The notes under the pieces: model-generated | What the model was told of the DNA's origin: nothing | Seen by the model: only the letters and a program-made list of their open reading frames with translations | Database searches by the model: none | Origin: Candidatus Omnitrophota bacterium | GTDB lineage: Bacteria > Omnitrophota > Gorgyraeia > Zapsychrales > JANLHA01 | Direction: 5' to 3' | Assembly (NCBI GenBank): GCA_020632535.1 | Contig: JACKFJ010000003.1 | Span: 38,166-102,165, forward strand | Length of the DNA stretch: 64,000 bases | Part shown: positions 18,603 to 57,933 of the stretch, piece after piece | How the letters are laid out: the number at the start of each line of letters is the position of its first letter | Position numbering within the stretch: the first letter of the stretch is position 1 | Made by a program: the position numbers and the translations under genes

Positions 18603-18608
18603 AAAAAT

Positions 18609-20522: not shown

Positions 20523-20548
20523 CACACAAATTAATCAAATAGATGTGT

Positions 20549-20577: not shown

Positions 20578-20594
20578 TCAACAAAACTAATATT

Positions 20595-35295: not shown

Positions 35296-36381
35296 ATGTC
35301 AATGTTGTTGGAGAACCTTGTGCAAACCAAAATTGCCGTCATCGGTATCAATCACAAAAAAGCCCCAATCGAGATCCGAGAACGTTTTTCCCTGTCTGAT
35401 ACCGAACAGAAACTTCTTTTGAGCGAACTCAAAAACCGCCCTGATGTTATTGAAGCATTTGTTCTTTCAACGTGCAATCGTGTCGAAGTTTATGCCAATC
35501 TTCTGAATCAATCACAAGACCCATTTTTCCTTTTGGAAGTCATTTGCCAAATTAAGAAAATCAATTTTACCCCAAATTTACGAGAATATTTTTATACCCA
35601 CACCAATAAAAACGCCACACGTCACTTATTAAGAGTAACGTCCGGTCTTGACTCCCTCATCCTTGGTGAAAAGCAAATTTTAGGTCAAGTTAAAATCGCA
35701 GTCGCGCAAGCACAAGAACTCTCATTATTTCATCATCAATTTAATATTCTGTCTAATCTCGCAATTCGCACTGGTAAAAAAGCACAGTCTGAAACCGAAA
35801 TCAGCTGGGGAGGATCTTCCGTCGGATGGGCGGCAGTTGTTCACGCCGAAAAAATTCTCGAAACCTTACAAAATAAAACTGTATTAGTTATTGGTGCTGG
35901 TAAAATGAGCGCTCTTACTCTGCAACATATGAGCGGCAAGAATTTGAAAAAGCTTTATTTAATGAATCGCACGCATGAAAAAGCAGCCCCAATCGCTCAA
36001 AATTATGCTGCCGAGCTTGTTTCTCTCTATGATCTAAAAGAAATCTTAACCAAAGTCGATGTTTGTATTTGTGCCGTTGCAGCACCGCACTACATCATTG
36101 AAAAAGAACTTCTGTCAACAGTGATGACAGCACGTGATCAACGTCCGCTTCTAATGATTGACATTGCTGTCCCACGTAACGTTGATCCAACGGCCGGACA
36201 AATTCCCGGAGTTGAAGTTTGCACAGTTGATGACTTAGAAGTCGTCATCACTCAAACCATGGCAAAGCGTCAAGCGGCGATCAAGGCCGTGGAACATATT
36301 GTTGAGAATAAGCTTGCCGAATTTTACGAAAAAATCCAAAAGATTAAGAATCTTGGTGATTCTATCGAGGTTACAAAATGA
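35296..36381 (+). CDS. hemA: Glutamyl-tRNA reductase
   Basis: GINHKKAPIEIRERF, STCNRVEVY (catalytic Cys), GLDSLILGE.QILGQVK and the GAGKM NADPH fold. Confidence 0.9.
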   Translation: MSMLLENLVQTKIAVIGINHKKAPIEIRERFSLSDTEQKLLLSELKNRPDVIEAFVLSTCNRVEVYANLLNQSQDPFFLLEVICQIKKINFTPNLREYFYTHTNKNATRHLLRVTSGLDSLILGEKQILGQVKIAVAQAQELSLFHHQFNILSNLAIRTGKKAQSETEISWGGSSVGWAAVVHAEKILETLQNKTVLVIGAGKMSALTLQHMSGKNLKKLYLMNRTHEKAAPIAQNYAAELVSLYDLKEILTKVDVCICAVAAPHYIIEKELLSTVMTARDQRPLLMIDIAVPRNVDPTAGQIPGVEVCTVDDLEVVITQTMAKRQAAIKAVEHIVENKLAEFYEKIQKIKNLGDSIEVTK

Positions 36382-36692
36382 TTCTTGAACAAATTATCAT
36401 TTTAGGATTCAGTTTATTTTTATTCATCGGCGCATATTTTGGCGTAAAAGCAAAAAGCAAGATTTCCTTAATTATGGGGGTTGCGGCGGGAACACTCATC
36501 CTTATCGGCGATTTAATTCTGCGGTTTAATCAAAAAGCAGGGTTACTTTTTTTAATGGTCATTGCCGGGCTTTTAATCGTAAGTTTTGTTCAGCGCGTTC
36601 TTAAAACCAAGAAAATGATGCCAGCAGGAATGCTTTTGATTACCAGTGTTTTGTTTTTTACGTTTATTCTTTTTAAATTTCTCAAATTTTAA
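36378..36692 (+). CDS. Small 4-TM membrane protein (TMEM14-like, tentative)
   Basis: 104 aa with four hydrophobic helices and a GAYFGVKAKSKISLIMG pattern. Overlaps the hemA stop (ATGA). Confidence 0.45.
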   Translation: MILEQIIILGFSLFLFIGAYFGVKAKSKISLIMGVAAGTLILIGDLILRFNQKAGLLFLMVIAGLLIVSFVQRVLKTKKMMPAGMLLITSVLFFTFILFKFLKF

Positions 36693-43047: not shown

Positions 43048-43048
<1 letters not shown>

Positions 43049-43917
43049 TGACAAGTTCATCGAATATTCAAACGGAAACAAACGAGCCAGAAGAAAAATC
43101 GTTTTTTGGAATTATTATTCATTCGTTTTTTGTCATTCCTTTTATCATCGCGATGGCAGCTTTACTTCTTTTCGCGTCAATGCACTGGTTAACCCGTGAA
43201 CAATTAACAGCTTATGATTATCTCGAACAGGTCAAAATCGGCGGAATTACAAAACGTTGGCAAGCGGCTTTCGAATTGTCAAAAATTCTTGCGAATCCCA
43301 AATTGATTCCTCAAGAAGAACGTTTTGCCAATGAATTAACAGCCGCTTTTCAAAACTCAAAAACAGATGATAAACGCGTGCAGCAATACTTGGCGCTTGC
43401 CATGGCTAAAACGGGAAATCCGGTTTTTTTAAACACACTTGTTTCTGGATTAAATGGTGCTAGTGACGAAAATTTACGAACGATCATTTACGCCTTGGGA
43501 CTGCTTAAGGACAAGCGCGCCGTCCCGACACTTTTACAATATTTAGATAATCCCGACGAACGCGTGCGGTCTATAACGGTTGTCTCTCTAGGAAATATCG
43601 GGGATGATAACATCCGTCCAGCATTACGACGAATGCTGGAAGATCCTCAACCGAACGTGCAATGGGGCGCGGCAATTTCACTTGCCAACTTTAAAGATCC
43701 GGCTGGAAAAAATATTTTAAAAAATTTGCTAAATCGAAATTATCTTTCACAATACAAGGAAGTTGATCCACAAGAACAAACACAAATTGTTCTTGAAGCA
43801 ATTACCGCCAGCAGTTATCTTAATGATGCTCAATTGAATAAACAATTACAAGAACTTAGTAAACATGATGAAAGCATGAGAGTCCGCTCACTTTCGATGG
43901 CGGCTCTCCAAAAATAA
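43048..43917 (+). CDS. Membrane-anchored HEAT-repeat protein
   Basis: One TM helix followed by repeated AV..L...L.D....VR..A...LG units. Its start shares a nucleotide with the atpC stop (TAATG). Confidence 0.6.
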
Positions 43918-43921
43918 TTTT

Positions 43922-44467
43922 ATGACCGAAACAAAACCATCGACGCCAAGTTCAAATCCAACACCAGTGCCACAGCCGCCCACCATGGATCGACGTACAT
44001 TCATCAAATGGAGTGCTGTTGGCTGGGCCGCGTTTGCGGCCGTTATCGGTGGCTATGGAACAATGATTGTTCGTTATCTTTTTCCCAATGTTCTTTTTGA
44101 ACCCAAGCAAGAATTCCGTGCCGGATTACCAGAAGAATATCAAGTTGGTGAAGTTTCAGAACGCTGGAAAGACGCTTACGGAACATGGATCGTACGCGAT
44201 TCAGAAAAAATTTATGCATTAGCCACGATTTGTACACATTTAGGATGCACACCAAATTGGATGCAAAATGAAGCCAAATTCAAATGTCCGTGCCACGGTA
44301 GCGGATTTTACATGACAGGAATTCATTTTGAAGGACCGGCACCACGGCCACTGGAACGATACCGTATTTTTCTTTCTGATGATGGCGAAATCGTCGTTGA
44401 TAAAACAAGAAAATTTCAGCAGGAAAAAGGGGAGTGGTCCGATCCCGAATCATTTGTAACAGTTTGA
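43922..44467 (+). CDS. Rieske 2Fe-2S subunit of a cytochrome b complex (Tat substrate)
   Basis: Twin-arginine signal MDRRTFIKW plus the cluster boxes CTHLGC and CPCHGS. Confidence 0.9.
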   Translation: MTETKPSTPSSNPTPVPQPPTMDRRTFIKWSAVGWAAFAAVIGGYGTMIVRYLFPNVLFEPKQEFRAGLPEEYQVGEVSERWKDAYGTWIVRDSEKIYALATICTHLGCTPNWMQNEAKFKCPCHGSGFYMTGIHFEGPAPRPLERYRIFLSDDGEIVVDKTRKFQQEKGEWSDPESFVTV

Positions 44468-44476
44468 GAGGATATC

Positions 44477-45274
44477 ATGTCAGATCAGCCCAATGCGCTA
44501 GCAAAATTTTTAGATTGGTTATCCAAAACACAAGTCGCTAAAGCGATTTTCCGCACCGGTATTCCAAAGAACCGTCGTCAACGCATGACGGTCATGCTCA
44601 ACAATGTGTTTTTACATTTGCATCCTGTCCGCCTTCCAAAACATGCGGTCAAAATCAAATACACATGGTGTATGGGTGGTTTATCATTCTTTGTTTTTCT
44701 CGTCCTAACAGTTACGGGAATTTTGCTCATGTTTTATTATCGTCCAACGGTTGAATACGCGTACGGTGATATCGTAGATTTGCGCGAACAAGTACCCCTT
44801 GGAATTATGCGTGAAATTCACCGCTGGGGCGCGCATTTGATGGTTATTACGGTCTGGCTACATATGTTCCGTGTTTTTATGACCGGTTCATATAAACCAC
44901 CGCGTGAATTCAATTGGATTATCGGTGTTGTTCTTCTTGTTCTGACAATGTTGATGAGTTTTACGGGATATCTCTTGCCGTGGGATCAATTAGCCATCTG
45001 GGCAATTACGGTGGGATCAAATATGGCTGGGGCAACACCAATTTTAGGTGCCGCAGGTCCGGGTTCAAATCTTTTGGCATTGGGTGATGTGAACTTTGTC
45101 ACGAGTGCTAGTGATGCCCGCTTTGCAATGTTAGGCGGACGCTTCGTCGGTGAAGGAGCATTATTAAGATTTTATGTTTTGCATTGCATCGGCTTGCCAT
45201 TTATTATCATGATTTTTATGATTATACATTTCTGGAGAGTTCGAAAAGACGGTGGAATTTCCGGACCGGTTTAA
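44477..45274 (+). CDS. Cytochrome b, N-terminal (b6-like) subunit
   Basis: Four helices with the heme His pairs (HRWGAHLMV.....H and [11 protein letters not shown] context). Confidence 0.9.
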
Positions 45275-45277
45275 TTT

Positions 45278-46396
45278 ATGATCGAAGAATTTAAAAATAT
45301 CATTAATATTTTGGCTCGGCCGTACATTATGTTCCCGGCCATGATCGTTGCGTTTATTTTTATTTTTCCCGCGACCGATGGGTTAATGAAAATCAATCGC
45401 CGTTTGGGTCTCTATAAACTTTGGACCAATAACGGCGGCATCGCCATCTTTGCTTTTTTATTTCTTGGATTTGGATTCGGTTTAACTGACCCGAATTTTC
45501 GGGCCATTGTAACCAAACCTGATAATGTTCCAATCGTGGGTCTTATTTTCCTCGTTGTCTTTTTTCTCTGGTTTGCTTTAAAACAAGCTTGGGAAAATGA
45601 CGAACGAGAAGCCAAAGGTTTACGACCCAATGAAGCGGAGGATGCCAAAGAAAATATTTTAGTGTGGCCCGATCTCGTTTATATCGAATTTATCGCCATG
45701 CTTTTGATTTCGGCACTACTGATTGTCTGGGCAATTGTTTTAAAGGCACCGCTGGAACAACCCGCGAATCCAACCGTTTCACCGAATCCATCCAAAGCCC
45801 CATGGTACTTTCTGGGCTTACAAGAAATGCTCGTCTATTTTGATCCATGGATTGCCGGCGTGCTTTTCCCAACGGTGATCATGCTTGGATTTATGTGCAT
45901 TCCGTTTATCGACAATAACCGTAAAGGTTTAGGTTATTACTCCTTTAATTCACGAAAAATGGCGATTTCGATCTTTCTTTTCTTTTGGTTGATTCTCTGG
46001 ATCTTTCTTATTATCACCGGAACATTTTTGCGTGGGCCAAATTGGAATTTCTTTGGACCATTTGAATATTGGGATGTTCATAAACTTGAGGCTCTGACCA
46101 ATATTAATCTTTCCGAGGTTGTTTACATGATTCTTTTGAATCAACGTTTGCCGGACAATATTCTCTTGAGGGAAATATGGGGAATTCTTGCTTTGCTCGG
46201 ATACTTTACGCTTACACCTCTCATTTTAGCTAAAACATTTCTCAAAAATGTTTATAACCGTTTAGGACCATTACGCTACAGTATTTTTATTATTTTCATG
46301 CTGTTAGCCGCAAGTTTACCGATCAAAATGTTTTTGCGATGGATATTTAATATCAAATACATCGTGGCAATTCCGGAGTTTTTCCTCAACATTTAA
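45278..46396 (+). CDS. Cytochrome b C-terminal (subunit IV-like) protein with extra helices
   Basis: SKAPWYFLGLQEML is the Qo-site PEWY-box region, and it reads APWY here (codons 45797-45808). At 372 aa it is longer than PetD. Confidence 0.8.
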   Translation: MIEEFKNIINILARPYIMFPAMIVAFIFIFPATDGLMKINRRLGLYKLWTNNGGIAIFAFLFLGFGFGLTDPNFRAIVTKPDNVPIVGLIFLVVFFLWFALKQAWENDEREAKGLRPNEAEDAKENILVWPDLVYIEFIAMLLISALLIVWAIVLKAPLEQPANPTVSPNPSKAPWYFLGLQEMLVYFDPWIAGVLFPTVIMLGFMCIPFIDNNRKGLGYYSFNSRKMAISIFLFFWLILWIFLIITGTFLRGPNWNFFGPFEYWDVHKLEALTNINLSEVVYMILLNQRLPDNILLREIWGILALLGYFTLTPLILAKTFLKNVYNRLGPLRYSIFIIFMLLAASLPIKMFLRWIFNIKYIVAIPEFFLNI

Positions 46397-46411
46397 TAAT
46401 TAGAGCATAGT

Positions 46412-49378
46412 ATGGGTGTCGACGAAAGACATTACAATATAGAGAAGTTAAATAAAATTTTTGCCATCGCGAGTCTCACTTTACTCACGGGGGTTGGACT
46501 GCTTTTCTATAACGATTATTCCCGTAAATGGAAAGATTATCAGGGGGAATACCAAAATCTCGAAATCGAAAAAACTCGCGTTAAACTCGACGATGAAAAT
46601 GCTAAGTTAAAAGACGACGCCGAATTTATCAAACTTCAGGAAGACCTTCAGAAAGCCAAAGCGAACTTTGCGGACCAATGTTCACCCGCTAAACTCCAAG
46701 ACATTGCCAAAGCCAATGAGGGAATCAATTCCCACTCTGAAATTTTAAAGCAGCAGTATCGAGTTATCAAGGCACAACTCGACACCGCCAAATTCCATTA
46801 TGAGGAAATTGCCGCCAAAGGACATGGCGATGTCAAAGTTGCCGAAATCCGTTACAAAAGCCTTGAACAAAGGACAAAACAGCTTAATCAACGCATACAA
46901 AATGATGACAATAAATTTGCAAACAATAAAAAAACAATAGATGATTGCTCACAAACAGTCAGGGATTTAGAACGTAACGAGCGGGCGCTTACTCAGAAAT
47001 CTACAATACTTGATCGCAAACTTAAAAAAATCGATCCTAATGAGATGAGTCTCACCAATCGAATCGCGAATTTGGTCAGAAATTTACCTGTGATTGACCT
47101 TGCCAACCCCACTGTAAAGGTACAACAAATTGTTTTAAAGGATATTCATGATGATTTAAATTTTATGACAATGCCTAAAGTTGACCGTTGCACGACGTGC
47201 CATTTGGGTATTGCAAATCCTGATTACAAGGATGCCGCACAACCTTTACGAACACATCCGAATCTCGAGCTTTATTTATCTAAGGATTCCGCTCACCCCA
47301 TTGAATCTTTTGGCTGTACCACATGCCATGAAGGAAGCGGTCGCGCGACGGATTTTGTGACCGCGGCCCACACGCCTTCATCCGAAAAACAGGAGCATGA
47401 ATGGAAGAAAAAATATAACTGGGCAGAACAGCATCACTGGGACAAGCCCATGTATGCCACACCATATGTAGAAGCGGGCTGTTTTAAGTGCCACTCCGGT
47501 CAGACAACCATCAAAGGCGCTGAAAAATTAAATCTCGGGCTTCAGTTAATTGAACGCGCAGGCTGCTATGCGTGCCACTCGATTGATAAATATAAGGACT
47601 GGCCTAAGCCCGGACCAAACTTAGAACATTTAGCTTCAAAGTCTACAGCGGAATGGACATATCGCTGGATCGCGGATCCAAAATCATTCCGACACAATAC
47701 TTGGATGCCTTCATACTTTAATCAAAGCAATAACAGTGATCCCGAATCGAAAGCGCGCTCACAACAGGAAATTCACGCGATCGTTCATTATCTTTTTGCT
47801 GAAAGCAGCGAATTCAAAATGAAAAGCATGCCACAACCGGGTGATGCAACAAAGGGCGAAGAATTAGTCGCTTCCATCGGATGTTTTGGCTGTCATAACA
47901 TTGATCATAGCCAGAAGAAAATGACCCGTGACAGAACGATGCTCACCAAAGAACAAGGACCAAACCTTATCGGCTTCGGCACAAAAACTTCAAAAATCTG
48001 GCTTTATGAATGGCTTAAAAATCCTCAACGCTATCATCCCGAAACACGTATGCCCGATTTACGATTAACGGATAATGAAGCCGCGGATATTGCCGCGTTT
48101 TTATCCAAAGATACGAATGAATCCTTTAATAATCAGCCTATTGCACCAATCAACGATAAAATTGTCGATGATCTTGTCCGTGGATTTTTACAAAAGTCAT
48201 TATCCGAAGTCGAAACAGAAGCCAAATTACCCAAAATGAGTCGCGATCAAAAATTGCAATTTGCTGGTCAAAAATTAATTGCCCAATATGGCTGCTATTC
48301 ATGCCATGACATTAAAGGCTTTAAAGGTTACAAGCCAATTGGCGTTGATTTAACCGAAGAAGGAAGCAAGTCAACAGATAAATTTGATTTTGGTTTTGTC
48401 AAGATTGAACACAGCAAGCAAGCGTGGTTTACCCAAAAACTTCGCGATCCGCGCATTTTTGATGAGAAGAAAATCAAAACGCCGGATGAAAAATTACGCA
48501 TGCCAAATTATAATTTCTCTGAAAAAGAAGCCGAAGCGATTACCACGGCTTTGCTCGGATTTGTTAAAGATAAACCCGGAAAGAGTAAGCCGCGCACGCC
48601 AGAAAATCTCGCCATTGAGCGCGGAGAACAAATTGTACGAGAATTTAATTGCCAAGGCTGCCATATCATTGAACACGAAGGAGGTGCCATTAAAGACAGT
48701 ATTAGCGACTGGCTCGTCAAATATCAGGGTAAAGATAAAAGTGAAGTCGACACGATTATAAAAACATTTAGTCCACCTAACCTTAACGGCATCGGAAAAA
48801 AAGTGCAATCGCAGTGGCTTTTTGAATTCATCCATAAGCCCGAAATTGTTCGTCCGTGGCTCAAAGTCCGGATGCCAACGTATTCCTTTAATGCTGCGCA
48901 CCTAAACTCACTTTTAAAATATTTTAACGCTTTAGACAAAGAAGAATTTCCTTTTACTGAGCATGCAAATACCACATTAACGCCAACGGAACTGATCGCG
49001 GCGCAAAAGATGTTTTCTCCAGATTACTTTGATTGCACCAAATGTCATATTGTCGGCAATCAAATGCCATCGGGCTCACAAGAAACATGGGCACCCAATT
49101 TAGCGCTTGCGGGCAAACGTTTAAAACCGGAATGGGTCATTGACTGGATAAAGAATCCAACCGCCATCGATCCCGCAACAAAAATGCCAACATTTTTTGA
49201 CCCGCAAAACTTCAGTGAATCAGGCCCGCCCGATATCTTTGATGGCGATGAAAATGAACAAATCCGTGTCTTGCGCAATTATATTATGTCTATCTCAACA
49301 TTACCGCCACAACCTATATCGATGCCAACAGCGACACTGACAACAAATCCAGCCGCAACAGCGGAACAAAGCAAATAA
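46412..49378 (+). CDS. Membrane-anchored octaheme c-type cytochrome with N-terminal coiled-coil stalk
   Basis: An N-terminal TM helix is followed by about 200 aa of charged heptad-rich sequence. Eight CxxCH motifs follow: CTTCH, CTTCH, CFKCH, CYACH, CFGCH, CYSCH, CQGCH, CTKCH. Five of them are followed by a distal MP motif (WMPSY, RMPDL, RMPNY, RMPTY, KMPTF). Confidence 0.85.
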   Translation: MGVDERHYNIEKLNKIFAIASLTLLTGVGLLFYNDYSRKWKDYQGEYQNLEIEKTRVKLDDENAKLKDDAEFIKLQEDLQKAKANFADQCSPAKLQDIAKANEGINSHSEILKQQYRVIKAQLDTAKFHYEEIAAKGHGDVKVAEIRYKSLEQRTKQLNQRIQNDDNKFANNKKTIDDCSQTVRDLERNERALTQKSTILDRKLKKIDPNEMSLTNRIANLVRNLPVIDLANPTVKVQQIVLKDIHDDLNFMTMPKVDRCTTCHLGIANPDYKDAAQPLRTHPNLELYLSKDSAHPIESFGCTTCHEGSGRATDFVTAAHTPSSEKQEHEWKKKYNWAEQHHWDKPMYATPYVEAGCFKCHSGQTTIKGAEKLNLGLQLIERAGCYACHSIDKYKDWPKPGPNLEHLASKSTAEWTYRWIADPKSFRHNTWMPSYFNQSNNSDPESKARSQQEIHAIVHYLFAESSEFKMKSMPQPGDATKGEELVASIGCFGCHNIDHSQKKMTRDRTMLTKEQGPNLIGFGTKTSKIWLYEWLKNPQRYHPETRMPDLRLTDNEAADIAAFLSKDTNESFNNQPIAPINDKIVDDLVRGFLQKSLSEVETEAKLPKMSRDQKLQFAGQKLIAQYGCYSCHDIKGFKGYKPIGVDLTEEGSKSTDKFDFGFVKIEHSKQAWFTQKLRDPRIFDEKKIKTPDEKLRMPNYNFSEKEAEAITTALLGFVKDKPGKSKPRTPENLAIERGEQIVREFNCQGCHIIEHEGGAIKDSISDWLVKYQGKDKSEVDTIIKTFSPPNLNGIGKKVQSQWLFEFIHKPEIVRPWLKVRMPTYSFNAAHLNSLLKYFNALDKEEFPFTEHANTTLTPTELIAAQKMFSPDYFDCTKCHIVGNQMPSGSQETWAPNLALAGKRLKPEWVIDWIKNPTAIDPATKMPTFFDPQNFSESGPPDIFDGDENEQIRVLRNYIMSISTLPPQPISMPTATLTTNPAATAEQSK

Positions 49379-50154
49379 TGTTGTTTAAAATTTCGCTTTT
49401 AACATCACTGCTTTTTAGTACACTTTATCCACTTTGTTTTCTTATCAGTTTTAACGACCAATTAAAAAATAATTTTCATCGCTTTCACCTCGGGATATCC
49501 TGCTGTGTAGCCGGCCTTAGTACAATTATATTTTGGTTTTATCCCTTTGCTCTTAAGGAACAGCAAGTCGCCTTAATCATCTGGAGCATTTTTCTCCTTA
49601 TTGTCGCAGGATATTATTGGACAAAACCTTCAGTCAATCCGGTCATCATCACGCTGCCTTGCATCGCTGGATTAATCATAACTTTACAAATTTTAAACAC
49701 ATGGATTCCTCTAAACTTTTGGATTGCTTTGCTGACAATACTTGCTGGAATTATCTTTTGCGCCTCACTCTTTGCCATGAATTTAGGTCACTGGTATTTG
49801 AACGTACATGGCCTGCCTTTGCATCACTTACAACGCAGTGTCTACGTTTTTTGGGCTGCAGTCGCATTGCGAGCGATTGCTGATGTTTACTTGCTGTCTT
49901 CACAAAAAATCATCGTGCACGGCGAACTTTTTCCGATTTATAAATTTATTCTTTCCATCGAAGGTTTTTTGCTCATCATAGCGATTCTTTTTGGAACAAT
50001 TTTCCCACTTATTTGTTTATATTTTGTGAAAGGAACACTCGATGTCAAATCAACACAAAGCGCCACCGGAATCCTTTACGCGATTCTTTGCGGCGTCGTG
50101 ATCGGTGACATCGCGTATAAATATTATTTGCTAAAATACGGCATTATCCTCTAA
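49378..50154 (+). CDS. Polytopic membrane protein of unknown function
   Basis: 258 aa with about 8 TM helices. Its start shares a nucleotide with the cytochrome stop (TAATG). Contains NLGHWYLNVHGLPLHH. Confidence 0.5.
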   Translation: MLFKISLLTSLLFSTLYPLCFLISFNDQLKNNFHRFHLGISCCVAGLSTIIFWFYPFALKEQQVALIIWSIFLLIVAGYYWTKPSVNPVIITLPCIAGLIITLQILNTWIPLNFWIALLTILAGIIFCASLFAMNLGHWYLNVHGLPLHHLQRSVYVFWAAVALRAIADVYLLSSQKIIVHGELFPIYKFILSIEGFLLIIAILFGTIFPLICLYFVKGTLDVKSTQSATGILYAILCGVVIGDIAYKYYLLKYGIIL

Positions 50155-50155
50155 T

Positions 50156-50566
50156 ATGAAAACCATTTCATGGGATTGTCCATCCTGTAAAAAGTTAAGC
50201 GTTGCCCCAGCCAAAACCGGCGCCCTCATCTGCCCGCATTGTAATGAAAATTGCGGCAGAGTCGACAGTGATGAGCTTTTTCCCGAATCATGCCCTCGAT
50301 GCTCATGCACACAATTTTATCTCGTAAAAGATTTTAATCAGGCCATGGGCTGCGTCATTATGCTTATCGGCATTGTTCTTGTACCACGTACATACGGTTT
50401 AAGCCTACCAGCCATGGCGCTTTTAGATTGGTTTCTTTTTCGCCGCATCGCGTCCGTTGCCATTTGTTATCGTTGTGGTGCCGAATTCCGCGGTTTTAAA
50501 ATTCCTGAACACATCAAACCCTTTATTCATCATATCGGGGCCAAATACGACCGAAAAAAACGTTAG
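50156..50566 (+). CDS. Zinc-ribbon membrane protein of unknown function
   Basis: CPSC...CPHC, CPRCSC and a C-terminal CYRC flank one or two TM helices. It starts 2 nt after the upstream stop. Confidence 0.5.
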   Translation: MKTISWDCPSCKKLSVAPAKTGALICPHCNENCGRVDSDELFPESCPRCSCTQFYLVKDFNQAMGCVIMLIGIVLVPRTYGLSLPAMALLDWFLFRRIASVAICYRCGAEFRGFKIPEHIKPFIHHIGAKYDRKKR

Positions 50567-50767: not shown

Positions 50768-51346
50768 ATGGAACAAACCGACGAAGAATTGATGTCCCAG
50801 TTCGCAGGAGGCGACATGCCCGCTTTAGAGGGAATTTTTACCCGCTATAAAAAACCTGTTTTTAATTTTGCCTTGCGCTTTTTAGCCAATCGCGCCGAAG
50901 CCGAAGATGTCGCCAGCGATGTTTTTTTCGCTGTCATGAGTGGCAAATACCACTACACCCCCAAAGCTAAATTTTCCACATGGCTTTTTACCGTGACTCG
51001 CAACGCGTGCATTTCCCGAATCCGTAATAGCAAAAAATTCTTTTCCCTCTGGTTTAAGTCAGAAGAAGGGGACGATCAGCAAATGCAATTGCCTGATCAC
51101 AACACATTGCCGGCGCCCGATGAGCTCATAAAGAAAGAACAGAGCGTTTTCATTGAAAGGGCCCTCGCCCATCTGCCTTTAGGCCAGAGGGAAGCGATTA
51201 TTTTAAAAGAGTTTCAAGACATGAGTTATGAAGAAATAGCAAAGGTACTTAACTGTTCGCTTTCGAATGTAAAGATTTTGATTTTTCGCGGCCGCGAGAA
51301 TTTACGACGAGAAATAAAAACGTCCGGCTTGGAGGAACTCCGATGA
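50768..51346 (+). CDS. ECF-family RNA polymerase sigma factor
   Basis: 192 aa. Region 2 (FNFALRFL.NRAEAEDVASDVF, WLFTVTRN) and region 4 (REAIILKEFQDMSYEEIAKVLNCSLSNVKILIFRGR). Confidence 0.88.
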   Translation: MEQTDEELMSQFAGGDMPALEGIFTRYKKPVFNFALRFLANRAEAEDVASDVFFAVMSGKYHYTPKAKFSTWLFTVTRNACISRIRNSKKFFSLWFKSEEGDDQQMQLPDHNTLPAPDELIKKEQSVFIERALAHLPLGQREAIILKEFQDMSYEEIAKVLNCSLSNVKILIFRGRENLRREIKTSGLEELR

Positions 51347-53733
51347 CAGACCATCAAATATGGAAACAATTACTTTCTGCTTATTTCGACGATGAATTGT
51401 CGCCGGAAGAAAAGGATACTGTCAACAATCATTTGATTGACTGTCCCGCTTGCCAAAAATATTTAAAAGAACTGCAATCTCTCTCTCTCAACGTCAAAGC
51501 TTTAAAGAACGAACCTCTTTCTCCCGATCTGGAACAGCGTTTAAACAACTTAAACCGCACCAGAACAGAGGGATCAACTATGCAAAAAACAAATTTTATG
51601 AACTTTTTAAAAACCGCGACACCAGTTGTTGTCGTATTATTTCTCGCGATCTTTAGTATTCAAATGTACTCCAAACGAGCGATGCAAGCACGAGTTCGTG
51701 ATGCCAGTCAATACACCCCGACACAAACTCTCGCTTTAGGAACAACAAAACAATATCAACCTTATTATGAATCGTCAAACTACAGCGGACGTTTGCGCAG
51801 CGCGGCGGATGATATTGGTACTCAGTACAATGCTGGCCATACGAATATTAAAAAGGAAATGAGAGCTAAGGAGGCGGCAGTTGATAGCATGGGCGTATAT
51901 GCTTTTCAACTTAAGCAACTCGCTGAAAAAGAAACACGCGCACATTCTAACATGCCATCTTCCGTTGTTGTCAACGGATCCGCAGCAATGTTTGCCTCAA
52001 GGACCAAGAGCGATGAAAACAAAGTCAACTGGAAAGATACCGCTACAATAAATTACCAACGAGAAAATTATGCCTTAAAATTACAGCGAGGAATGATCAA
52101 TCCGGCTGAAAAAGACTATGACAGTAAAACGCGTAGTGCTGATGAAGGTTATTTACAAAGCCAAGGCTATGGAATAGACAAATACCCCTATGCCCCAATT
52201 CAAATCCATGAATCCAACACAGAGCAATATGATCTAATCAATGAAAATGAATTTTTGCAAGTAACCGAAAATCCACTTTCAACATTTTCTATCGACGTTG
52301 ATACGGCATCATATGCCAATGTTCGTCGTTTTCTGAACAATACTCAAATGCCGCCGCGCGATGCCGTGCGTATTGAAGAAATGATCAACTACTTCAAATA
52401 CAATTACGCGACACCAAGCTGGAATCAACCATTCTCAATCAATTTGGAACATGGCATTTGCCCATGGAATCCCGCGCATCAACTCGTGCTCGTCGGTTTG
52501 CAAGGCAAAGAGCTTTCCGCACGCCAAACACCAATTAGCAATTTGGTTTTTCTCATTGACGTATCAGGTTCAATGAATTCAGCGGATAAACTGCCTTTGC
52601 TCAAAGAATCCATGAAATTGATGGTTCAACAATTGCGGCCTGAAGAACGTGTTTCGCTCGTCGTATACGCGGGCAATGCCGGACTTGTCCTCGATTCCAC
52701 GCCAGCTCACAACAAAGGCCTTATTATGGCCGCGATTGACAATTTGCAAGCCGGTGGTTCGACAGCCGGCGGACAAGGGATTGAACTTGCGTACGCCATC
52801 GCAAAAAAGAACTTTATTCATAATGGAAACAATCGTGTCATACTCGCTACCGATGGCGATTTTAATGTCGGGGTGTCCAGCGATTCTGCTCTTGTACAAA
52901 TGATTGAAGAAAAGCGTAAAGACAATATTTTCCTAACTGTTCTTGGTTTTGGAACCGGCAATTATCAAGATGGCAAAATGGAAAAACTTGCGAATAAAGG
53001 GAACGGCAACTATTTTTATATTGATTCTATCAATGAAGGCAAAAAAGTTCTTGTTGATGAATTAGGTTCAACACTCATTGCGATCGCCAAAGATGTGAAA
53101 ATCCAAATCGAATTTAATCCCAATGCCGTAAAAGCCTATCGCTTGATTGGTTATGAAAACCGTAAATTGGCCAAAGAAGATTTTAACGACGACACCAAAG
53201 ATGCGGGGGAATTAGGCGCAGGTCATACCGTAACCGCGCTTTATGAAATCGTTCCCGCCGGTTCATGGGAATCAACAGGCGGCAATGTTGACCCACTTAA
53301 GTATCAAAAACAAACTTCAATAAAGTCATCTTTCACAATCAATAAAGAAATGATGACAGTCAAACTGCGCTACAAAGAACCAAAATCAAACACAAGCAAG
53401 TTAATTACAAAAATATTGACTCAACCGACGAATACCACAAATCAACGCTGGTTTGGCGCAAGTGATAACTTACAATTTGCTTCAGCTGTCGCTGAGTTTG
53501 GCATGTTATTGCGTGATTCCAAATTCAAAGCAAACTCCTCATATACTGCCATAATTCAACGTGCGCAAATGAGTGCCTATACTGATCCACAAAATCACAA
53601 AGCCGAATTTATCAGCTTAGTGCAAAAAGCCGCATCGCTTGATCAACGCCAGCCGCAAAGTCAAGTTTTTCAAGATCCACACCAAAACTATCCCGTCCCT
53701 ACACAAGGAGAGGGGGGATATAACCAAAAGTAA
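51343..53733 (+). CDS. Anti-sigma factor (zf-HC2) fused to a YfbK-like vWA domain protein
   Basis: The N-terminus has HLIDCPACQKYL, followed by one TM helix. Next come NPLSTFSIDVDTASYANVRRFL and the vWA MIDAS motif LVFLIDVSGSMNS, then a long C-terminal domain. Overlaps the sigma gene stop (ATGA). Confidence 0.8.
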   Translation: MTDHQIWKQLLSAYFDDELSPEEKDTVNNHLIDCPACQKYLKELQSLSLNVKALKNEPLSPDLEQRLNNLNRTRTEGSTMQKTNFMNFLKTATPVVVVLFLAIFSIQMYSKRAMQARVRDASQYTPTQTLALGTTKQYQPYYESSNYSGRLRSAADDIGTQYNAGHTNIKKEMRAKEAAVDSMGVYAFQLKQLAEKETRAHSNMPSSVVVNGSAAMFASRTKSDENKVNWKDTATINYQRENYALKLQRGMINPAEKDYDSKTRSADEGYLQSQGYGIDKYPYAPIQIHESNTEQYDLINENEFLQVTENPLSTFSIDVDTASYANVRRFLNNTQMPPRDAVRIEEMINYFKYNYATPSWNQPFSINLEHGICPWNPAHQLVLVGLQGKELSARQTPISNLVFLIDVSGSMNSADKLPLLKESMKLMVQQLRPEERVSLVVYAGNAGLVLDSTPAHNKGLIMAAIDNLQAGGSTAGGQGIELAYAIAKKNFIHNGNNRVILATDGDFNVGVSSDSALVQMIEEKRKDNIFLTVLGFGTGNYQDGKMEKLANKGNGNYFYIDSINEGKKVLVDELGSTLIAIAKDVKIQIEFNPNAVKAYRLIGYENRKLAKEDFNDDTKDAGELGAGHTVTALYEIVPAGSWESTGGNVDPLKYQKQTSIKSSFTINKEMMTVKLRYKEPKSNTSKLITKILTQPTNTTNQRWFGASDNLQFASAVAEFGMLLRDSKFKANSSYTAIIQRAQMSAYTDPQNHKAEFISLVQKAASLDQRQPQSQVFQDPHQNYPVPTQGEGGYNQK

Positions 53734-53981: not shown

Positions 53982-54716
53982 ATGAATACAAAAAAACTGT
54001 TAGTCAGCATTATTGCTGTCCTATTATTTGCAGGAAGCAACTTTGCTTCAGCGGCAACAATAAGCGGGACAATCAAATATGAAGGTGCAATTCCAAAATT
54101 CAAAGAAATCAAAATGGACGCAGACCCCGTTTGCGTTACCCATCACAGCGAACCCGTTTATCCCCAAACGCTTCTTTTAGGAGAAGATAAAACTTTAGGC
54201 AATGTTTTTGTCTATGTCAAAAATGGTCTAGCCAAGACAACTTATCCCACACCCGAAGAACCCGTTGTACTCGACCAAAAAGGTTGTGAATATACACCCC
54301 ATGTCGCGGGCATCATGATTGGACAAACGATGAAAATTTTAAACCCGGACGGAACACTTCACAATGTTCATTCCATGAGCAAAATCAACCCCGAATTTAA
54401 TCTCGCAATGCCAAAATTCAAAACTGAAACATCAAAAGTTTTTAATAAAGCTGAATTTATGTTTGGCATGAAATGTGATGTCCATCCATGGATGGGCGCG
54501 TGGATTTCCGTCATGGACAATCCATTTTTTGCAACAACCCAAAAAGACGGCACATTTACCATTGCCAATCTGCCAGCAGGAAATTATGAAATTGAAGCGT
54601 GGCATGAAAAACTTGGGACGAAAACCACAAAAATTACGATTGGCGCAGATGAAACTAAAACTGCGGATTTTACTTTTGTCAAACCGGGCGCTTCTGCGGC
54701 AGAAAGCACAAAATAA
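53982..54716 (+). CDS. Secreted cupredoxin-like protein with C-terminal carboxypeptidase-regulatory-like beta-sandwich
   Basis: Signal peptide ...SNFASA. The loop KCDVHPWM has C-x2-H-x2-M spacing as in amicyanin CTPHPFM, with an upstream LHNVHS. The C-terminus reads DGTFTIANLPAGNYEIEAWHE. Confidence 0.55.
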   Translation: MNTKKLLVSIIAVLLFAGSNFASAATISGTIKYEGAIPKFKEIKMDADPVCVTHHSEPVYPQTLLLGEDKTLGNVFVYVKNGLAKTTYPTPEEPVVLDQKGCEYTPHVAGIMIGQTMKILNPDGTLHNVHSMSKINPEFNLAMPKFKTETSKVFNKAEFMFGMKCDVHPWMGAWISVMDNPFFATTQKDGTFTIANLPAGNYEIEAWHEKLGTKTTKITIGADETKTADFTFVKPGASAAESTK

Positions 54717-54719
54717 TTT

Positions 54720-56450
54720 ATGTCACACGAAGCACATCATGAAATGCCATTCTGGCAAAAGTATATTTTTTCTCAGGATCATAAAGTTATTGGCATTCAA
54801 TACGGCCTAACTTCCTTATTATTTTTATTCTTCGGATTCTTCCTTATACTTTTAATGCGTTGGCAATTAGCATACCCCGGAGAAGCACTTCCTTTAATCG
54901 GGAAGTGGCTTGGCGAAGCTAATATGCCCGATGGAAAAATGCTTCCTGAATTTTACAATCAATTGGGCGCAATGCATGGCACTATCATGGTTTTTTTAGG
55001 CGTTGTACCTTTAGCCGTTGGAGCTTTTGGAAATTATCTTGTCCCTTTGCAAATCGGCGCACCAGACATGGCTTTCCCAAAACTCAATATGGCCAGTTAT
55101 TGGGCCTATTTTTGTGGTGGCGTTGTGATGTTAGCAAGTTTCTTTGTGCCGGGAGGAGCCGCCAGCTCCGGATGGACGTCATACCCGCCGCTAGCAAATA
55201 TCGCTACAACAGGGCAAACATTCTGGCTTTTGGGTATGGTTTTACTTATTACATCATCACTTCTCGGTTCAGTTAATACCATTACAACAATTTTTCAATT
55301 ACGGGCGGAAGGATTAACTTTCTTCAGATTGCCGTTTTTCGTATGGGCGCAGCTTGTAACTGCGTTCTTGCTTTTACTTGCTTTTCCACCTCTGGAAGCA
55401 GCTGGCGTAATGCAGCTTATGGATCGACTTTTTCAAACAAGCTTCTTTATGCCTAGCGGATTGATGGTCGGTGGGGAGCCATTAGCGATCAGTGGCGGAG
55501 GAAGCGCACTATTGTGGCAGCATCTTTTTTGGTTTTTAGCACATCCGGAAGTCTATGTTTTGATTTTACCAGCCATGGGAATTATAACGGAAATCATCGC
55601 CAACAATACGCGCAAGCCCATCAACGGATATAACATCATGGTTTATTCCATTATTTTTCTTGGATTCATGTCCTTTGTCGTGTGGGCACATCACATGTTT
55701 TTGACTGGAATGGGAACCGCCATCAGTGCATTTTTCCAAGCAACGACCATGATTATCTCAATTCCTTCTGTTATCGTTCTATCATTTTTATTCTTAACAC
55801 TCTGGGGAGGATCCATTCGCTACAACACACCCATGCTTTTTGCTTTAGCCTTCTTACCGATGTTCGGAATCGGCGGGTTAACGGGACTTCCTCTAGGATT
55901 GGCAGCCAGCGATATTCCACTCCATGATACATACTACGTTATTGGACATTTTCACTATATTGTTGCGCCGGGGACAATTTTCGCGCTTTTTGCCGGCATT
56001 TATTACTGGTTCCCAAAAGCGACCGGACGTAAAATGAGCGAATTTTTAGGACAACTTCATTTTTGGCCATCCTTGATTTTTATGAATATCATTTTTATGC
56101 CCATGTTTATTCAAGGATTAGCCGGTGTGTCACGTCGATTATATGACGGTGGAGCAACTTACGATTTTGCACATGGGGTTTTACACCTTAATAAACTCAG
56201 TACCCATGGCGCATGGGGATTGGTGATTGCACAAATTCCTTTTATTATCAATTTCTTTTGGAGCATGTACAAAGGAAAGAAGGTTACATCAAAAAATCCG
56301 TGGGAAGCAACGACTTTAGAATGGGATGCGCCAAATATTCCGCCGCACGGCAATTTTGAACAGCCACTCAAAGTTTATCGTGGTCCCTATGAATACAGTG
56401 TCCCGGGGGCAAAAAAAGATTATAGTCCGCAATCAAGCGAACACATTTGA
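54720..56450 (+). CDS. ctaD: Cytochrome c oxidase subunit I (A-type heme-copper oxidase)
   Basis: GAMHGTIMVF, WFLAHPEVYVLILPA, VWAHHMF and HDTYYVIGHFHY are collinear with family-A subunit I. Confidence 0.95.
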   Translation: MSHEAHHEMPFWQKYIFSQDHKVIGIQYGLTSLLFLFFGFFLILLMRWQLAYPGEALPLIGKWLGEANMPDGKMLPEFYNQLGAMHGTIMVFLGVVPLAVGAFGNYLVPLQIGAPDMAFPKLNMASYWAYFCGGVVMLASFFVPGGAASSGWTSYPPLANIATTGQTFWLLGMVLLITSSLLGSVNTITTIFQLRAEGLTFFRLPFFVWAQLVTAFLLLLAFPPLEAAGVMQLMDRLFQTSFFMPSGLMVGGEPLAISGGGSALLWQHLFWFLAHPEVYVLILPAMGIITEIIANNTRKPINGYNIMVYSIIFLGFMSFVVWAHHMFLTGMGTAISAFFQATTMIISIPSVIVLSFLFLTLWGGSIRYNTPMLFALAFLPMFGIGGLTGLPLGLAASDIPLHDTYYVIGHFHYIVAPGTIFALFAGIYYWFPKATGRKMSEFLGQLHFWPSLIFMNIIFMPMFIQGLAGVSRRLYDGGATYDFAHGVLHLNKLSTHGAWGLVIAQIPFIINFFWSMYKGKKVTSKNPWEATTLEWDAPNIPPHGNFEQPLKVYRGPYEYSVPGAKKDYSPQSSEHI

Positions 56451-56467
56451 AAGAAAAAAGGAATATT

Positions 56468-57067
56468 ATGTCCACCGCTGAAATTCCATTCACAGTTGAA
56501 TCCCGAAAGGATACCGGTTTATATAATGCCAAGCTCGGTATTTGGCTTTTTTTAGCGTCAGAAATGATGTTATTTGGCGCTTTATTTTCATCTTACATTT
56601 TATTACGTGTTGGAGCGACAAATTGGCCGCGCGGTTCAAGTATTTTGTCGGTGCCTCTCGGCGCATTAAATACAACTCTTCTCATTACCTCCAGCTTGAC
56701 GATTATTCTTTCTTGGGCAGCTTTGCGCATGAAAGACTTTAAAAAATACAAGCTCTATATGGGTGTCACAATTATTCTCGCTTTAGTATTTTTAGGAATC
56801 AAAGCTTATGAATATGGCATGAAATTTGAGCATCACTTATATCCAAGTACAAGTACATTTATGGCCATTTACTTTACTTTAACTGGTTTACACGCTTTGC
56901 ACATTATTGGCGGAATTGTTGTTAACGCTTACTTCTGGGGACCGGGAAGCCGAATGTGGCAAACAGACCCCGAACGATTTACCAATCGAATTGAAATCGC
57001 CGGACTCTACTGGCATTTTGTGGATTTGGTTTGGCTTTTTCTTTTTCCAGTTCTTTATTTGCTTTAA
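56468..57067 (+). CDS. ctaE: Cytochrome c oxidase subunit III
   Basis: Five helices and a C-terminal YWHFVDLVWLFLFP. I prefer the ATG at 56468. Confidence 0.85.
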   Translation: MSTAEIPFTVESRKDTGLYNAKLGIWLFLASEMMLFGALFSSYILLRVGATNWPRGSSILSVPLGALNTTLLITSSLTIILSWAALRMKDFKKYKLYMGVTIILALVFLGIKAYEYGMKFEHHLYPSTSTFMAIYFTLTGLHALHIIGGIVVNAYFWGPGSRMWQTDPERFTNRIEIAGLYWHFVDLVWLFLFPVLYLL

Positions 57068-57070
57068 ATA

Positions 57071-57124
57071 TCTTTCCCGCAATCTTTTGATGGATCCCCA
57101 ACAAGAACATTCGGGAATGACAAT
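57071..57124. repeat. Palindromic repeat locus R8 (fused, degenerate modules)
   Basis: tctttcccgcaatcttttgatggatccccaacaagaacattcgggaatgacaat combines halves of the two small hairpin modules. Confidence 0.7.
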
Positions 57125-57135
57125 AAGAGGGTAAT

Positions 57136-57501
57136 ATGTCAGCAACAAATATCGACACCATAAAGAATGAAATTCGCGGTTATATAACAATTTTTTCCGC
57201 GCTTTTAATATTGAGCTTTGTAACTGTTGGAATATTTTATTTGCAACTACCTTTAGGTTTTGCGATATTCTTTGCGCTTTTAATTTCCGCAATTCAGGCT
57301 TTTCTCGCCGCAGGATATTTTATGCATTTGATTTCAGAAAAAATGCTTTTACTATACGCGATTCTTGCCTTAACCGTAGTCTTTATAATTTTTGCAATAG
57401 CGCTACCCAGCATTGAGCATCACAACCCTATCACAGGAACAATTTACCAAAACGAACATCATCAACCCAATATTTCAGCGGAACATCATAATGTCCCTTA
57501 A
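57136..57501 (+). CDS. Cytochrome c oxidase subunit IV (prokaryotic CoxIV family)
   Basis: 121 aa with three TM helices. Called from position after subunit III. Confidence 0.65.
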   Translation: MSATNIDTIKNEIRGYITIFSALLILSFVTVGIFYLQLPLGFAIFFALLISAIQAFLAAGYFMHLISEKMLLLYAILALTVVFIIFAIALPSIEHHNPITGTIYQNEHHQPNISAEHHNVP

Positions 57502-57922: not shown

Positions 57923-57933
57923 GGAATTTTATT

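Follow-up and report, generated by a model that had tools for sequence, protein, structure and literature searches.

An octaheme-bearing Rieske/cytochrome b complex as a probable menaquinol-oxidising respiratory complex III in Omnitrophota and Planctomycetota

What enzyme is encoded where a Rieske gene, a split cytochrome b and an eight-heme cytochrome stand in a row, and where would its electrons go? We examined this question for positions 43922-49378 of a 64,000 nt window (the whole stretch of DNA that was analysed) from a Candidatus Omnitrophota genome, in which this complex is the only Rieske/cytochrome b enzyme. Our reading, to which we assign a probability of roughly 0.7, is that the locus encodes a respiratory complex III of a PVC type (Planctomycetota/Omnitrophota), namely a Rieske/cytochrome b complex of the 'APWY clade' that oxidises menaquinol, with electrons most likely flowing from menaquinol to an adjoining O2-reducing oxidase. 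The direction, partners and stoichiometry of the complex are predicted here from sequence and gene context. Four genes make up the core:

43922-44467, + strand: Rieske iron-sulfur subunit, 181 aa, with Tat motif and TM anchor (Pfam Rieske, E 1.7e-10)
44477-45274, + strand: cytochrome b6-like four-helix subunit (N-piece), 265 aa (Pfam Cytochrome_B, E 1.3e-43)
45278-46396, + strand: enlarged subunit IV (C-piece), 372 aa, about 8 TM helices, Qo box APWY at residues 174-177
46412-49378, + strand: membrane-anchored octaheme cytochrome c, 988 aa, exactly eight CXXCH

The Rieske protein has a twin-arginine RRTF at residue 24, one TM helix and the cluster boxes CTHLGC (104) and CPCHGS (122). The latter belongs to a CPCH-G-S-G-F stretch, the 'S-F' signature of Mid+ to high-potential Rieske proteins, which we read as a predicted potential of about +260 mV. 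The soluble domain (residues 65-180) matches PDB 9rk3, Kustd1480 of Kuenenia stuttgartiensis, with 149.6 bits (E 1e-42), and the potential measured for that protein is +335 mV (PMC12954380). Cytochrome b is divided between two genes 3 nt apart. The N-piece carries the His pairs H115/H129 and H236/H251 at b6f spacing and CMGG (CxGG) at residue 65; judged from these motifs, it has two b-heme sites and a cysteine, candidate C65, for a third, covalently bound heme cn. For subunit IV, a hydropathy scan indicated about 8 TM helices, comprising 3 extra N-terminal, 3 core and 2 extra C-terminal helices, in agreement with an AF2 model (pLDDT 87). The match to b6f subunit IV is confined to residues 129-250, and no structural match was found for the extra helices. 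In a profile alignment the APWY of K-A-P-W-Y-F-L (residues 173-179) fell on the PEWY of Chlamydomonas subunit IV, and APWY is present in 273 of the 287 family members examined. By its sequence, subunit IV forms a Qo site that lacks the customary acidic residue, and it carries five extra helices. The initial annotation had described a Tat-signal Rieske protein, a b6f-style split of cytochrome b, a 372-aa subunit IV with additional helices at both ends, the absence of the Glu of PEWY and an eight-heme cytochrome encoded by the next gene, and all of these descriptions were borne out.

The same annotation took these features to be peculiar, but they are instead the norm for a described clade, with counterparts in the Kuenenia complexes and across Omnitrophota and cultured Planctomycetota. 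As defined by Kao & Hunte 2014 (PMC4122944), the APWY clade combines APWY, a split cytochrome b, CxGG and a Mid+/high-potential Rieske protein, with Planctomycetes among its members; it corresponds roughly to subfamily G of Dibrova et al. 2017 (PMC5600118). At the locus, APWY at the PEWY position, the split, CxGG in the N-piece and the S-F Rieske protein are all present. The clade was defined from cytochrome b alone, however, and the text consulted makes no mention of an octaheme cytochrome, a subunit IV of 8 helices or a linkage to the oxidase. For each of the two membrane subunits, the top sequence matches in the PDB came from cytochrome b6f and the Firmicute/heliobacterial b6c complexes (N-piece against PDB b6, E 5.5e-44), which share the split b6/subunit IV arrangement, the b6-type His spacing and the heme cn cysteine. 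They differ from the complex here, which has the octaheme cytochrome instead of cytochrome f and APWY in place of PEWY/PDWY. Subunit IV of b6f has three helices, about 160 aa and PEWY, whereas the subunit here is more than twice as long, and the b6f substrate is plastoquinol, whereas here it would be menaquinol.

The nearest studied relative is the Kustd1480-1485 complex of the anammox bacterium K. stuttgartiensis, for which a Rieske crystal structure (9rk3) and an AlphaFold3 model of the complex are available, and enlarged subunits IV and hexa/octaheme partners have been described for the Kuenenia complexes (PMC12954380). The two complexes are alike in having closely related Rieske proteins, a cytochrome b of four helices that resembles b6, a subunit IV of more than three helices, menaquinone and, as far as the published architecture shows, a large TM-anchored, long-helix multiheme cytochrome replacing cytochrome f. 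In contrast to Kuenenia, where NAD(P) oxidoreductase subunits are present and subunit IV has 5 helices, the cluster here encodes no such subunits, has a subunit IV of about 8 helices, and shows linkage to the genes of an aa3 oxidase and of a blue-copper-like protein. Three further genes accompany the core:

43048-43917, + strand: HEAT-repeat (PBS-lyase-like) protein, 289 aa, predicted to be membrane-anchored (Pfam HEAT_2, E 3.5e-25)
49378-50154, + strand: polytopic membrane protein, 258 aa, no family match; its start overlaps the octaheme stop
50156-50566, + strand: 136-aa protein with four CxxC pairs (zinc-ribbon-like) and one TM helix, ending the tightly packed array

From atpC through the last gene (end 50566), intergenic gaps range from -1 to 15 nt, the genes directly upstream of the Rieske gene being those of the ATP synthase and the HEAT-repeat protein. 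The start of the HEAT-repeat gene overlaps the atpC stop and its end lies 4 nt before the Rieske gene; it is found immediately 5' of the Rieske gene in all five Omnitrophota loci examined (28-52% identity). In same-order relatives, the gene for the 258-aa protein is likewise found 3' of the octaheme gene (35-49% identity) and the 136-aa CxxC protein is kept (50-55% identity). Neither the HEAT-repeat gene nor that of the 258-aa protein was found in the Planctomycete loci examined.

A Rieske potential of about +300 mV is energetically lopsided when paired with menaquinol (-70 mV), which speaks against a simple forward reading, and for Kuenenia such a mismatch was read as the sign of a different, bifurcating function (PMC12954380). 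Applied to this locus, the high-potential Rieske protein would force a very low-potential b-heme branch, which would reduce a cytoplasmic acceptor via an n-side partner, perhaps the HEAT-repeat or the 136-aa CxxC protein, instead of entering a normal Q cycle. The closeness of the Rieske protein to Kustd1480, for whose complex the idea was raised, and the conserved accessory genes flanking the core fit this proposal. We nevertheless regard it as very unlikely, given that no flavin-, NAD(P)- or Fe-S-binding oxidoreductase domain was found in the accessory genes or elsewhere in the cluster from 43048 to 50566, that both the CxGG heme cn site and the b6-type ligands are preserved, as is usual for Q-cycle enzymes, and that Planctomycete clusters keep the core but dispense with the accessory genes.

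The octaheme cytochrome has a TM helix at residues 10-36 and a helical stalk at 39-207; three of its CXXCH are accompanied by conserved candidates for a distal His, and five His/Met domains resemble class I. Across 58 homologues, all eight CXXCH are invariant or nearly so, and the alignment revealed five Met-Pro pairs that vary little or not at all and three His that are fully conserved; from this pattern the first three hemes are probably bis-His. No cytochrome f-like match was found for the gene, the QcrC model reached 23 bits and the Foldseek rows were of low probability. In the 84%-complete genome, class-I cytochrome c matches (PF00034/PF13442) are confined to the octaheme gene, which also encodes the sole protein there with more than two CXXCH. 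Attachment of the eight hemes requires System II maturation, for which genes are present in the window:

28488-31549, + strand: System II cytochrome c maturation genes, ResB-like and CcsA-like (CcsBA)

Eight hemes exceed what a simple wire needs, a second point against the forward reading, and the octaheme could instead feed a non-oxygen acceptor (metals, selenite/tellurite or nitrogen oxides), as is thought for multiheme partners of related Geobacter cytochrome b complexes. Geobacter ExtOPQ supplied the best-scoring curated models for both membrane subunits: NCBIfam ExtP gave 268.7 bits with the N-piece, above b6 (183 bits), QcrB and SoxC and just below its cut-off of 290, and ExtQ, of 134 residues, gave 58.4 bits against a cut-off of 150. 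The operon context of ExtOPQ is selenite/tellurite reduction with a porin-cytochrome conduit, and multiheme chains are typical of such pathways. At this locus, by contrast, five of the eight hemes lie in His/Met class-I domains of high-potential type, the genome yielded no further multiheme cytochrome, whether of the outer membrane or elsewhere, the one molybdoenzyme examined is of the cytoplasmic Nas/Fdh-like type, and linkage to COX1 is tight; we consider a non-oxygen acceptor improbable to a similar degree as bifurcation. The initial annotation had proposed a non-canonical 'quinol:cytochrome c (or other acceptor) oxidoreductase', of which the quinol:cytochrome c-type assignment stands; with an aa3 oxidase encoded close by, the gene context disfavours the other acceptor. 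The oxidase genes lie 5 kb downstream on the same strand, preceded by the gene of a blue-copper-like protein:

53982-54716, + strand: secreted 244-aa protein with a type-1 (blue) copper ligand pattern, ending 3 nt before COX1
54720-58710, + strand: aa3-type heme-copper oxidase genes (COX1 54720-56450, COX3 56447-57067, COX4 57136-57501, COX2 57934-58710)

COX2 contains the CuA motif and is without a heme-c domain. In the copper protein, H127, C165, H168 and M171 (C-x2-H-x2-M) are invariant in 18 homologues, and the family occurs in 63 of 64 octaheme-bearing and 74 of 82 COX1-bearing genomes. Its gene lies between octaheme and COX1 in Omnitrophota and directly 3' of the octaheme gene in Planctomycetes, and in two genomes (G022 and G110) the protein is fused N-terminally to COX2. 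Given these associations, the copper protein is a probable electron entry point to the oxidase, although it may instead be a copper chaperone. The four-gene set including the octaheme was found in 64 of 301 sampled Omnitrophota genomes, as well as in the cultured Planctomycetota Singulisphaera, Schlesneria and Lacipirellula. Within the Omnitrophota sample, COX1 was detected in 61 of the 64 octaheme-bearing genomes versus 21 of the 237 without octaheme, counts that overstate the support since related genomes are not independent; the three octaheme-bearing genomes showing no COX1 (G209, G003 and G194) are all incomplete. Octaheme and COX1 lie on one contig within about 12 kb in at least 23 genomes, and G091, G243, G022 and G110 have their bc and oxidase genes in a single cluster read in one direction. 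The bc cluster of G035 continues into CtaA and CtaB, with COX1 on another contig, and in Lacipirellula and Schlesneria COX1 follows the octaheme cluster.

This wiring of complex III to complex IV resembles that of the actinobacterial bcc-aa3 supercomplex (QcrCAB + CtaCDEF), in which menaquinol is oxidised and electrons reach the CuA of aa3 solely through a multi-heme c subunit; here, complexes III and IV are linked at the level of their genes. As in bcc-aa3 wiring, the 84%-complete genome yielded no soluble cytochrome c. The c subunits are not homologous, however (QcrC model, 23 bits), and the actinobacterial complex has an unsplit cytochrome b with PDWY and is without heme cn and a copper protein. 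A cytochrome bd quinol oxidase, which bypasses the complex III route, is also encoded in the genome.

The quinone, judged from its biosynthesis genes, is menaquinone, as had been guessed in the initial annotation: MenD (451 bits, cut-off 244) and MenB (475 bits, cut-off 343) were detected with MenA adjacent, and no futalosine genes (MqnA, MqnC) were found in the genome. That annotation also placed a single-anchor type-B succinate dehydrogenase upstream; the type was confirmed, and the genes are upstream but 24 kb away and not adjacent:

17919-21356, + strand: type-B succinate dehydrogenase/fumarate reductase, sdhC (b558 family, 17919-18602; 168.8 bits, cut-off 96) followed by sdhA and sdhB

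Together, the menaquinone genes, the lack of any other class-I cytochrome c match and the nearby aa3 oxidase point to forward operation. Kao & Hunte 2014 (PMC4122944) proposed the opposite for APWY complexes, a guess against which the context here argues: a high-potential periplasmic donor would pass electrons through the octaheme to the menaquinone pool, uphill and paid for by the proton gradient. The high potential of the Rieske cluster and the lack of an acidic residue at the Qo site would suit such a role. The proposal was drawn from one Geobacter gene cluster. In the genome here, the regions examined showed no lithotrophic donor system, the sole Rieske/cytochrome b enzyme is linked to an oxidase and an ATP synthase, and the same complex is the standard complex III candidate in aerobic heterotrophic Planctomycetes. 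Reverse running consequently appears extremely unlikely.

In the forward reading, the Qo site would oxidise menaquinol and deliver the first electron to the Rieske cluster (near +335 mV in the closest studied homologue), from which it would travel along the octaheme heme chain, through the three probable bis-His hemes and then the five His/Met class-I domains, to the blue-copper-like protein, the CuA of the neighbouring aa3 oxidase and O2 reduction. The second electron would cross the membrane via the b hemes and heme cn to re-reduce quinone, and this Q cycle would build a proton gradient for use by the ATP synthase encoded directly upstream. Two more speculative extensions, each of which we consider unlikely, concern the assembly of the complex. 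One is an obligate III-IV supercomplex, with the octaheme and the copper protein as a fixed heme-copper wire; the oxidase would then dock onto a surface made up of the five additional subunit IV helices and the octaheme's helical stalk. The other is that the HEAT-repeat protein attaches heme cn. This protein resembles, by its sequence matches (including weak ones to NblB/CpcE), the bilin lyases that make Cys-tetrapyrrole thioether bonds, and by analogy it could be the long-sought heme cn attachment factor in organisms without a CCB system.

Since the genes are conserved, chance resemblance is no concern, and the locus is a typical copy of a complex III variant widespread in Omnitrophota and Planctomycetota. 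The initial annotation allowed that the same gene set might already be characterised in a well-described clade; the clade and the gene set are indeed known and common, so that the locus is a further member and not a singular case, but we found no purified or biochemically characterised complex of this octaheme kind in the literature searched. The copy described here adds nothing beyond a clean, complete example in which ATP synthase, complex III and complex IV genes stand side by side. DNA of this locus is present in activated-sludge metagenomes, a habitat in keeping with the forward reading.

Complex III of this type tends to be overlooked by automated annotation. All named subunit IV homologues encountered are labelled 'hypothetical protein' or by domain name only, one of the closest being mislabelled 'cytochrome C', and a recent genomic survey reported the bc1 complex as absent from Phycisphaerales. 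Both phyla, Planctomycetota and Omnitrophota, abound in soil, water and wastewater, and their complex III has never been isolated. The combination of a low-potential quinol, a high-potential Rieske protein and a Qo site without the acidic residue bears on the debate over the thermodynamic tuning of the Q cycle, and the existence of cultured hosts (Schlesneria, Lacipirellula and Singulisphaera) makes the question experimentally accessible.

Four genes on the + strand of the window, for a Rieske protein, a b6-like cytochrome b, an enlarged subunit IV and an octaheme cytochrome, are tightly packed in the following order.

43922-44467, + strand: Rieske protein, with twin-arginine RRTF at residue 24, one transmembrane helix and the boxes CTHLGC and CPCHGS
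44477-45274, + strand: N-terminal piece of cytochrome b, b6-type with four helices (Pfam E = 1.3e-43; cyanobacterial b6 E = 5.5e-44)
45278-46396, + strand: subunit IV, 372 residues, of which residues 129-250 alone resemble b6f subunit IV
46412-49378, + strand: octaheme cytochrome, with exactly eight CXXCH motifs

These features bear out the initial annotation of a Tat-type Rieske protein, a cytochrome b split into separate genes and an eight-heme product of the next gene. In the N-terminal piece of cytochrome b, two His pairs (H115/H129 and H236/H251) have the b6f spacing, and CMGG at residue 65 matches the CxGG signature, predictive of a covalently bound heme cn. The extra terminal helices ascribed to subunit IV were also recovered, with hydropathy and an AlphaFold2 model (pLDDT 87, pTM 0.83) agreeing on about eight helices, three of them additional at the N-terminus and two at the C-terminus. 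Foldseek searches with this model returned the b6f subunit IV core alone and no structural match for the extensions. The claimed replacement of PEWY also held, as A-P-W-Y (174-177) falls on P-E-W-Y of Chlamydomonas subunit IV in a profile alignment. Chance or a gene-calling artefact was ruled out by hundreds of conserved full-length homologues.

In a 2014 survey, APWY is one of six major Qo patterns and defines an "APWY clade" with split cytochrome b and CxGG, Rieske partners with Mid+ to high-potential signatures, and no member characterized as of that year (Kao & Hunte 2014, PMC4122944). The window Rieske protein reads C-P-C-H-G-S-G-F, corresponding to the "S-F" class of these authors. Such sequences also fall in a subfamily of mixed taxonomy that has CxGG and short cytochromes b (Dibrova et al. 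2017, PMC5600118). The enzyme is non-canonical, as had been proposed, yet it is a member of a described and very common clade. Our literature search returned no paper on the "APWY" Qo motif after Kao & Hunte 2014, no biochemical study of the planctomycete enzyme and nothing specific on a planctomycete octaheme complex III or supercomplex.

The solved structure nearest to the Rieske domain is 9rk3 (149.6 bits, E = 1e-42), which is Kustd1480 of Kuenenia stuttgartiensis, with a potential of +335 mV (PMC12954380). The Kuenenia complexes are b6f-like, with a five-helix subunit IV, a hexa- or octaheme cytochrome partner carrying a transmembrane helix and long helices, and an NAD(P) oxidoreductase (PMC12954380). 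This Rieske kinship, together with lopsided potentials, suggested an anammox-like bifurcation; in contrast to Kuenenia, however, no NAD(P) oxidoreductase of that kind is encoded in the window's cluster, which argues against it.

The gene set is widely distributed. Homologues of subunit IV number >8000 at 90% clustering, and at 50% clustering there are 2276 representatives with E up to 0.001, 255 of which reach E 1e-30; APWY is found in 273 of the 287 family members examined. Full-length octaheme orthologues (38-59% identity) are present in 64 of 301 sampled Omnitrophota genomes, spread patchily over families and classes. A scan of species genomes returned >550 relatives, including those in the cultured Singulisphaera sp. 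GP187, Aquisphaera insulae, Lacipirellula limnantheis and Schlesneria sp. T3-172, along with a MAG labelled Schlesneria paludicola. Longer forms of subunit IV (384-650 aa) occur in Isosphaeraceae, Phycisphaerales, Thermogutta and other Planctomycetota, and about 46 of 201 sampled Planctomycetota genomes carry this long type. Ten Planctomycete loci share one order, Rieske, b6, enlarged subunit IV and a cytochrome of 1018-1647 aa, with 65-68% (b6) and 50-56% (subunit IV) identity. Nine of the ten cytochromes have eight CXXCH; at the Singulisphaera locus there are seven in a 1018-aa ORF, and the C-terminal part lies in an overlapping ORF. Given this broad occurrence in Omnitrophota and Planctomycetota, the gene set with the octaheme cytochrome is the norm in much of the PVC group.

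Among four MAG records with an Isosphaeraceae-type subunit IV (L049, L050, L067 and L068), two are labelled Candidatus Kuenenia stuttgartiensis, one Alcaligenaceae and one Alphaproteobacteria; in L049 the whole cluster is present. Compared with the query, this subunit is 65-66% identical along its entire length in the records labelled Kuenenia, 95% identical in the record labelled Alphaproteobacteria and 61% identical across the C-terminal 375 residues in the one labelled Alcaligenaceae. These bins probably carry wrong taxonomic labels.

All eight heme sites of the octaheme cytochrome are kept in an alignment of 58 sequences, which also has three invariant His residues (H282, H295 and H320) near hemes 1-3 and five Met-Pro pairs, invariant or nearly so, following hemes 4-8. 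The pattern suggests that three bis-His hemes precede five class-I domains with His/Met ligation. A transmembrane helix (10-36) and a helical stalk (39-207) are predicted by the structural model (pLDDT 81). In Foldseek searches, likeness stayed at the level of single domains, to mitochondrial-type cytochrome c, to SoxX and to the caa3 subunit II heme-c domain; these resemblances to single-domain class-I cytochromes c, and others to coiled coils, included none with E <0.001. Within the 84%-complete genome, the octaheme cytochrome is the sole protein with >2 CXXCH, and all class-I cytochrome c matches sit within its gene. A non-oxygen acceptor for the octaheme cytochrome was suggested by one pointer, the Geobacter cytochrome b model ExtP (NCBIfam) as best-scoring model, but the search recovered no further multiheme cytochrome from the genome and none of the outer-membrane type.

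At four Planctomycete loci (L060, L063, L080 and L087), a 366-522-aa protein with two CXXCH is encoded between copper-protein paralogues and the oxidase, and two class-I cytochrome c domains were detected in both of the proteins tested (L080 and L087). The window has no counterpart.

The four core genes lie midway along a longer array without gaps. They are preceded by hemA, a Tmemb_14 gene, atpB, atpF-H-A-G-D-C and then a gene that overlaps the atpC stop with its start and encodes a membrane-anchored HEAT-repeat protein. The Tmemb_14-family small membrane protein (window 36378-36692, between hemA and atpB) has a homologue adjoining the same respiratory cluster in two other Omnitrophota genomes, G091 and G243. 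The long Planctomycete Rieske ORFs examined had no HEAT domain, either as a fusion or in an upstream gene. Two further features separate the octaheme gene from the oxidase cluster.

49378-50566, downstream of the octaheme gene: unannotated 258-aa polytopic membrane protein and 136-aa protein
50768-53733, between the bc and oxidase clusters: ECF sigma factor and zf-HC2/vWA/YfbK-type anti-sigma factor

The 136-aa protein has four CxxC pairs and one transmembrane helix. Both unannotated genes also lie 3´ of the octaheme gene in relatives within the same order, and neither was found in Planctomycetes or at the remaining Omnitrophota loci examined. Since the sigma/anti-sigma pair is absent at the corresponding position in four Omnitrophota genomes (G091, G243, G022 and G110), it appears to have been inserted into a III-IV cluster that would otherwise be contiguous. 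After the pair come a secreted 244-aa protein, COX1, COX3, COX4, COX2, CtaA, CtaB, SCO1 and DUF420, and the window also holds genes for CcsBA cytochrome c maturation and heme biosynthesis. With ATP synthase, complex III, oxidase, maturation and heme genes together, the window is a respiratory island, and the names of homologues assign the organism to Candidatus Omnitrophota. A promoter and terminator scan gave a result no better than shuffled sequence. The source genome is 1.94 Mb, and the window DNA occurs in activated-sludge metagenomes.

The proposed type-B SDH upstream was corroborated by an sdhC match to the b558 family (168.8 bits; cut-off, 96), at a distance of 24 kb. On the question of menaquinone versus ubiquinone, the classical menaquinone pathway is present, as MenD and MenB scored above cut-offs and the MenA gene adjoins MenB; for the futalosine pathway, MqnA was not found in the genome and MqnC fell under its cut-off. 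Elsewhere in the genome (G000:C3:279263-283131), a cytoplasmic three-gene molybdoenzyme module encodes a NarI/QmoC-like membrane protein, a Nas/Fdh-like catalytic subunit that falls short of both curated cut-offs and a four-cluster Fe-S protein, and probably is another quinone-linked dehydrogenase or reductase.

Several lines of evidence point to the neighbouring aa3 oxidase as the most likely electron acceptor. COX2 has the CuA motif C-x3-C-x3-H-x2-M and no heme-c domain, and the oxidase therefore needs a periplasmic one-electron donor. COX1 is present in 61 of 64 octaheme-bearing genomes versus 21 of the 237 others in the 301-genome Omnitrophota sample, and octaheme and COX1 genes lie within about 12 kb on a single contig in at least 23 genomes, kinship inflating both sets of counts. 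Five further Omnitrophota loci from several families have HEAT, Rieske, b6, subunit IV and octaheme genes and then the 244-aa protein (one with two accessory genes before the latter), followed by oxidase subunit genes in four and CtaA/CtaB in the fifth. ATP synthase is again directly upstream of the cluster in G091, and in Lacipirellula and Schlesneria COX1 is downstream on the same strand. Reverse operation of the complex, as proposed by Kao & Hunte, fits poorly: the proposal rested on one Geobacter cluster, and here the complex is the only one of the Rieske/cytochrome b type that the genome has, with linkage to an oxidase and ATP synthase. The COX2 gene (window 57934-58710) is placed after those for subunits I, III and IV, and the CuA loop of its product has Gln in place of the usual Glu (C-A-Q-L-C).

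The secreted 244-aa protein (window 53982-54716) has invariant H127, C165, H168 and M171, as well as C102, N128, N140 and W170. The ligand spacing, H-x37-C-x2-H-x2-M, matches that of type-1 copper sites as in amicyanin. Pfam assigns a carboxypeptidase-regulatory-like domain alone, and look-alike clusters in the protein atlas are unnamed and come from Verrucomicrobiota, Acidobacteriota, Nitrospirota and Planctomycetota. Within the Omnitrophota sample, the family occurs in 63 of the 64 genomes with the octaheme and in 74 of the 82 with COX1, and one to three paralogues lie 3´ of the cytochrome gene in the Planctomycete loci. In G022 and G110, two Omnitrophota genomes of other families, the N-terminus of COX2 carries the complete protein, with its signal peptide, as an in-frame fusion.

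L111:5731-7221, - strand: copper protein-COX2 fusion, 496 aa
L112:12924-14519, + strand: copper protein-COX2 fusion, 531 aa

A separate copper-protein paralogue is encoded just upstream of each of these two fusions. About twenty more open frames of 460-600 aa, retrieved in the copper-family search of sampled genomes, suggest that the fusion is common. In caa3 oxidases, a cytochrome c donor domain is fused to subunit II. Based on the ligand pattern, the co-occurrence and the caa3-like fusion to COX2, we give a somewhat better than even chance that the 244-aa protein would be the electron entry point to CuA, with a copper chaperone as the alternative. The family of Rieske/cytochrome b complexes with an octaheme partner is still a worthwhile target for biochemistry.
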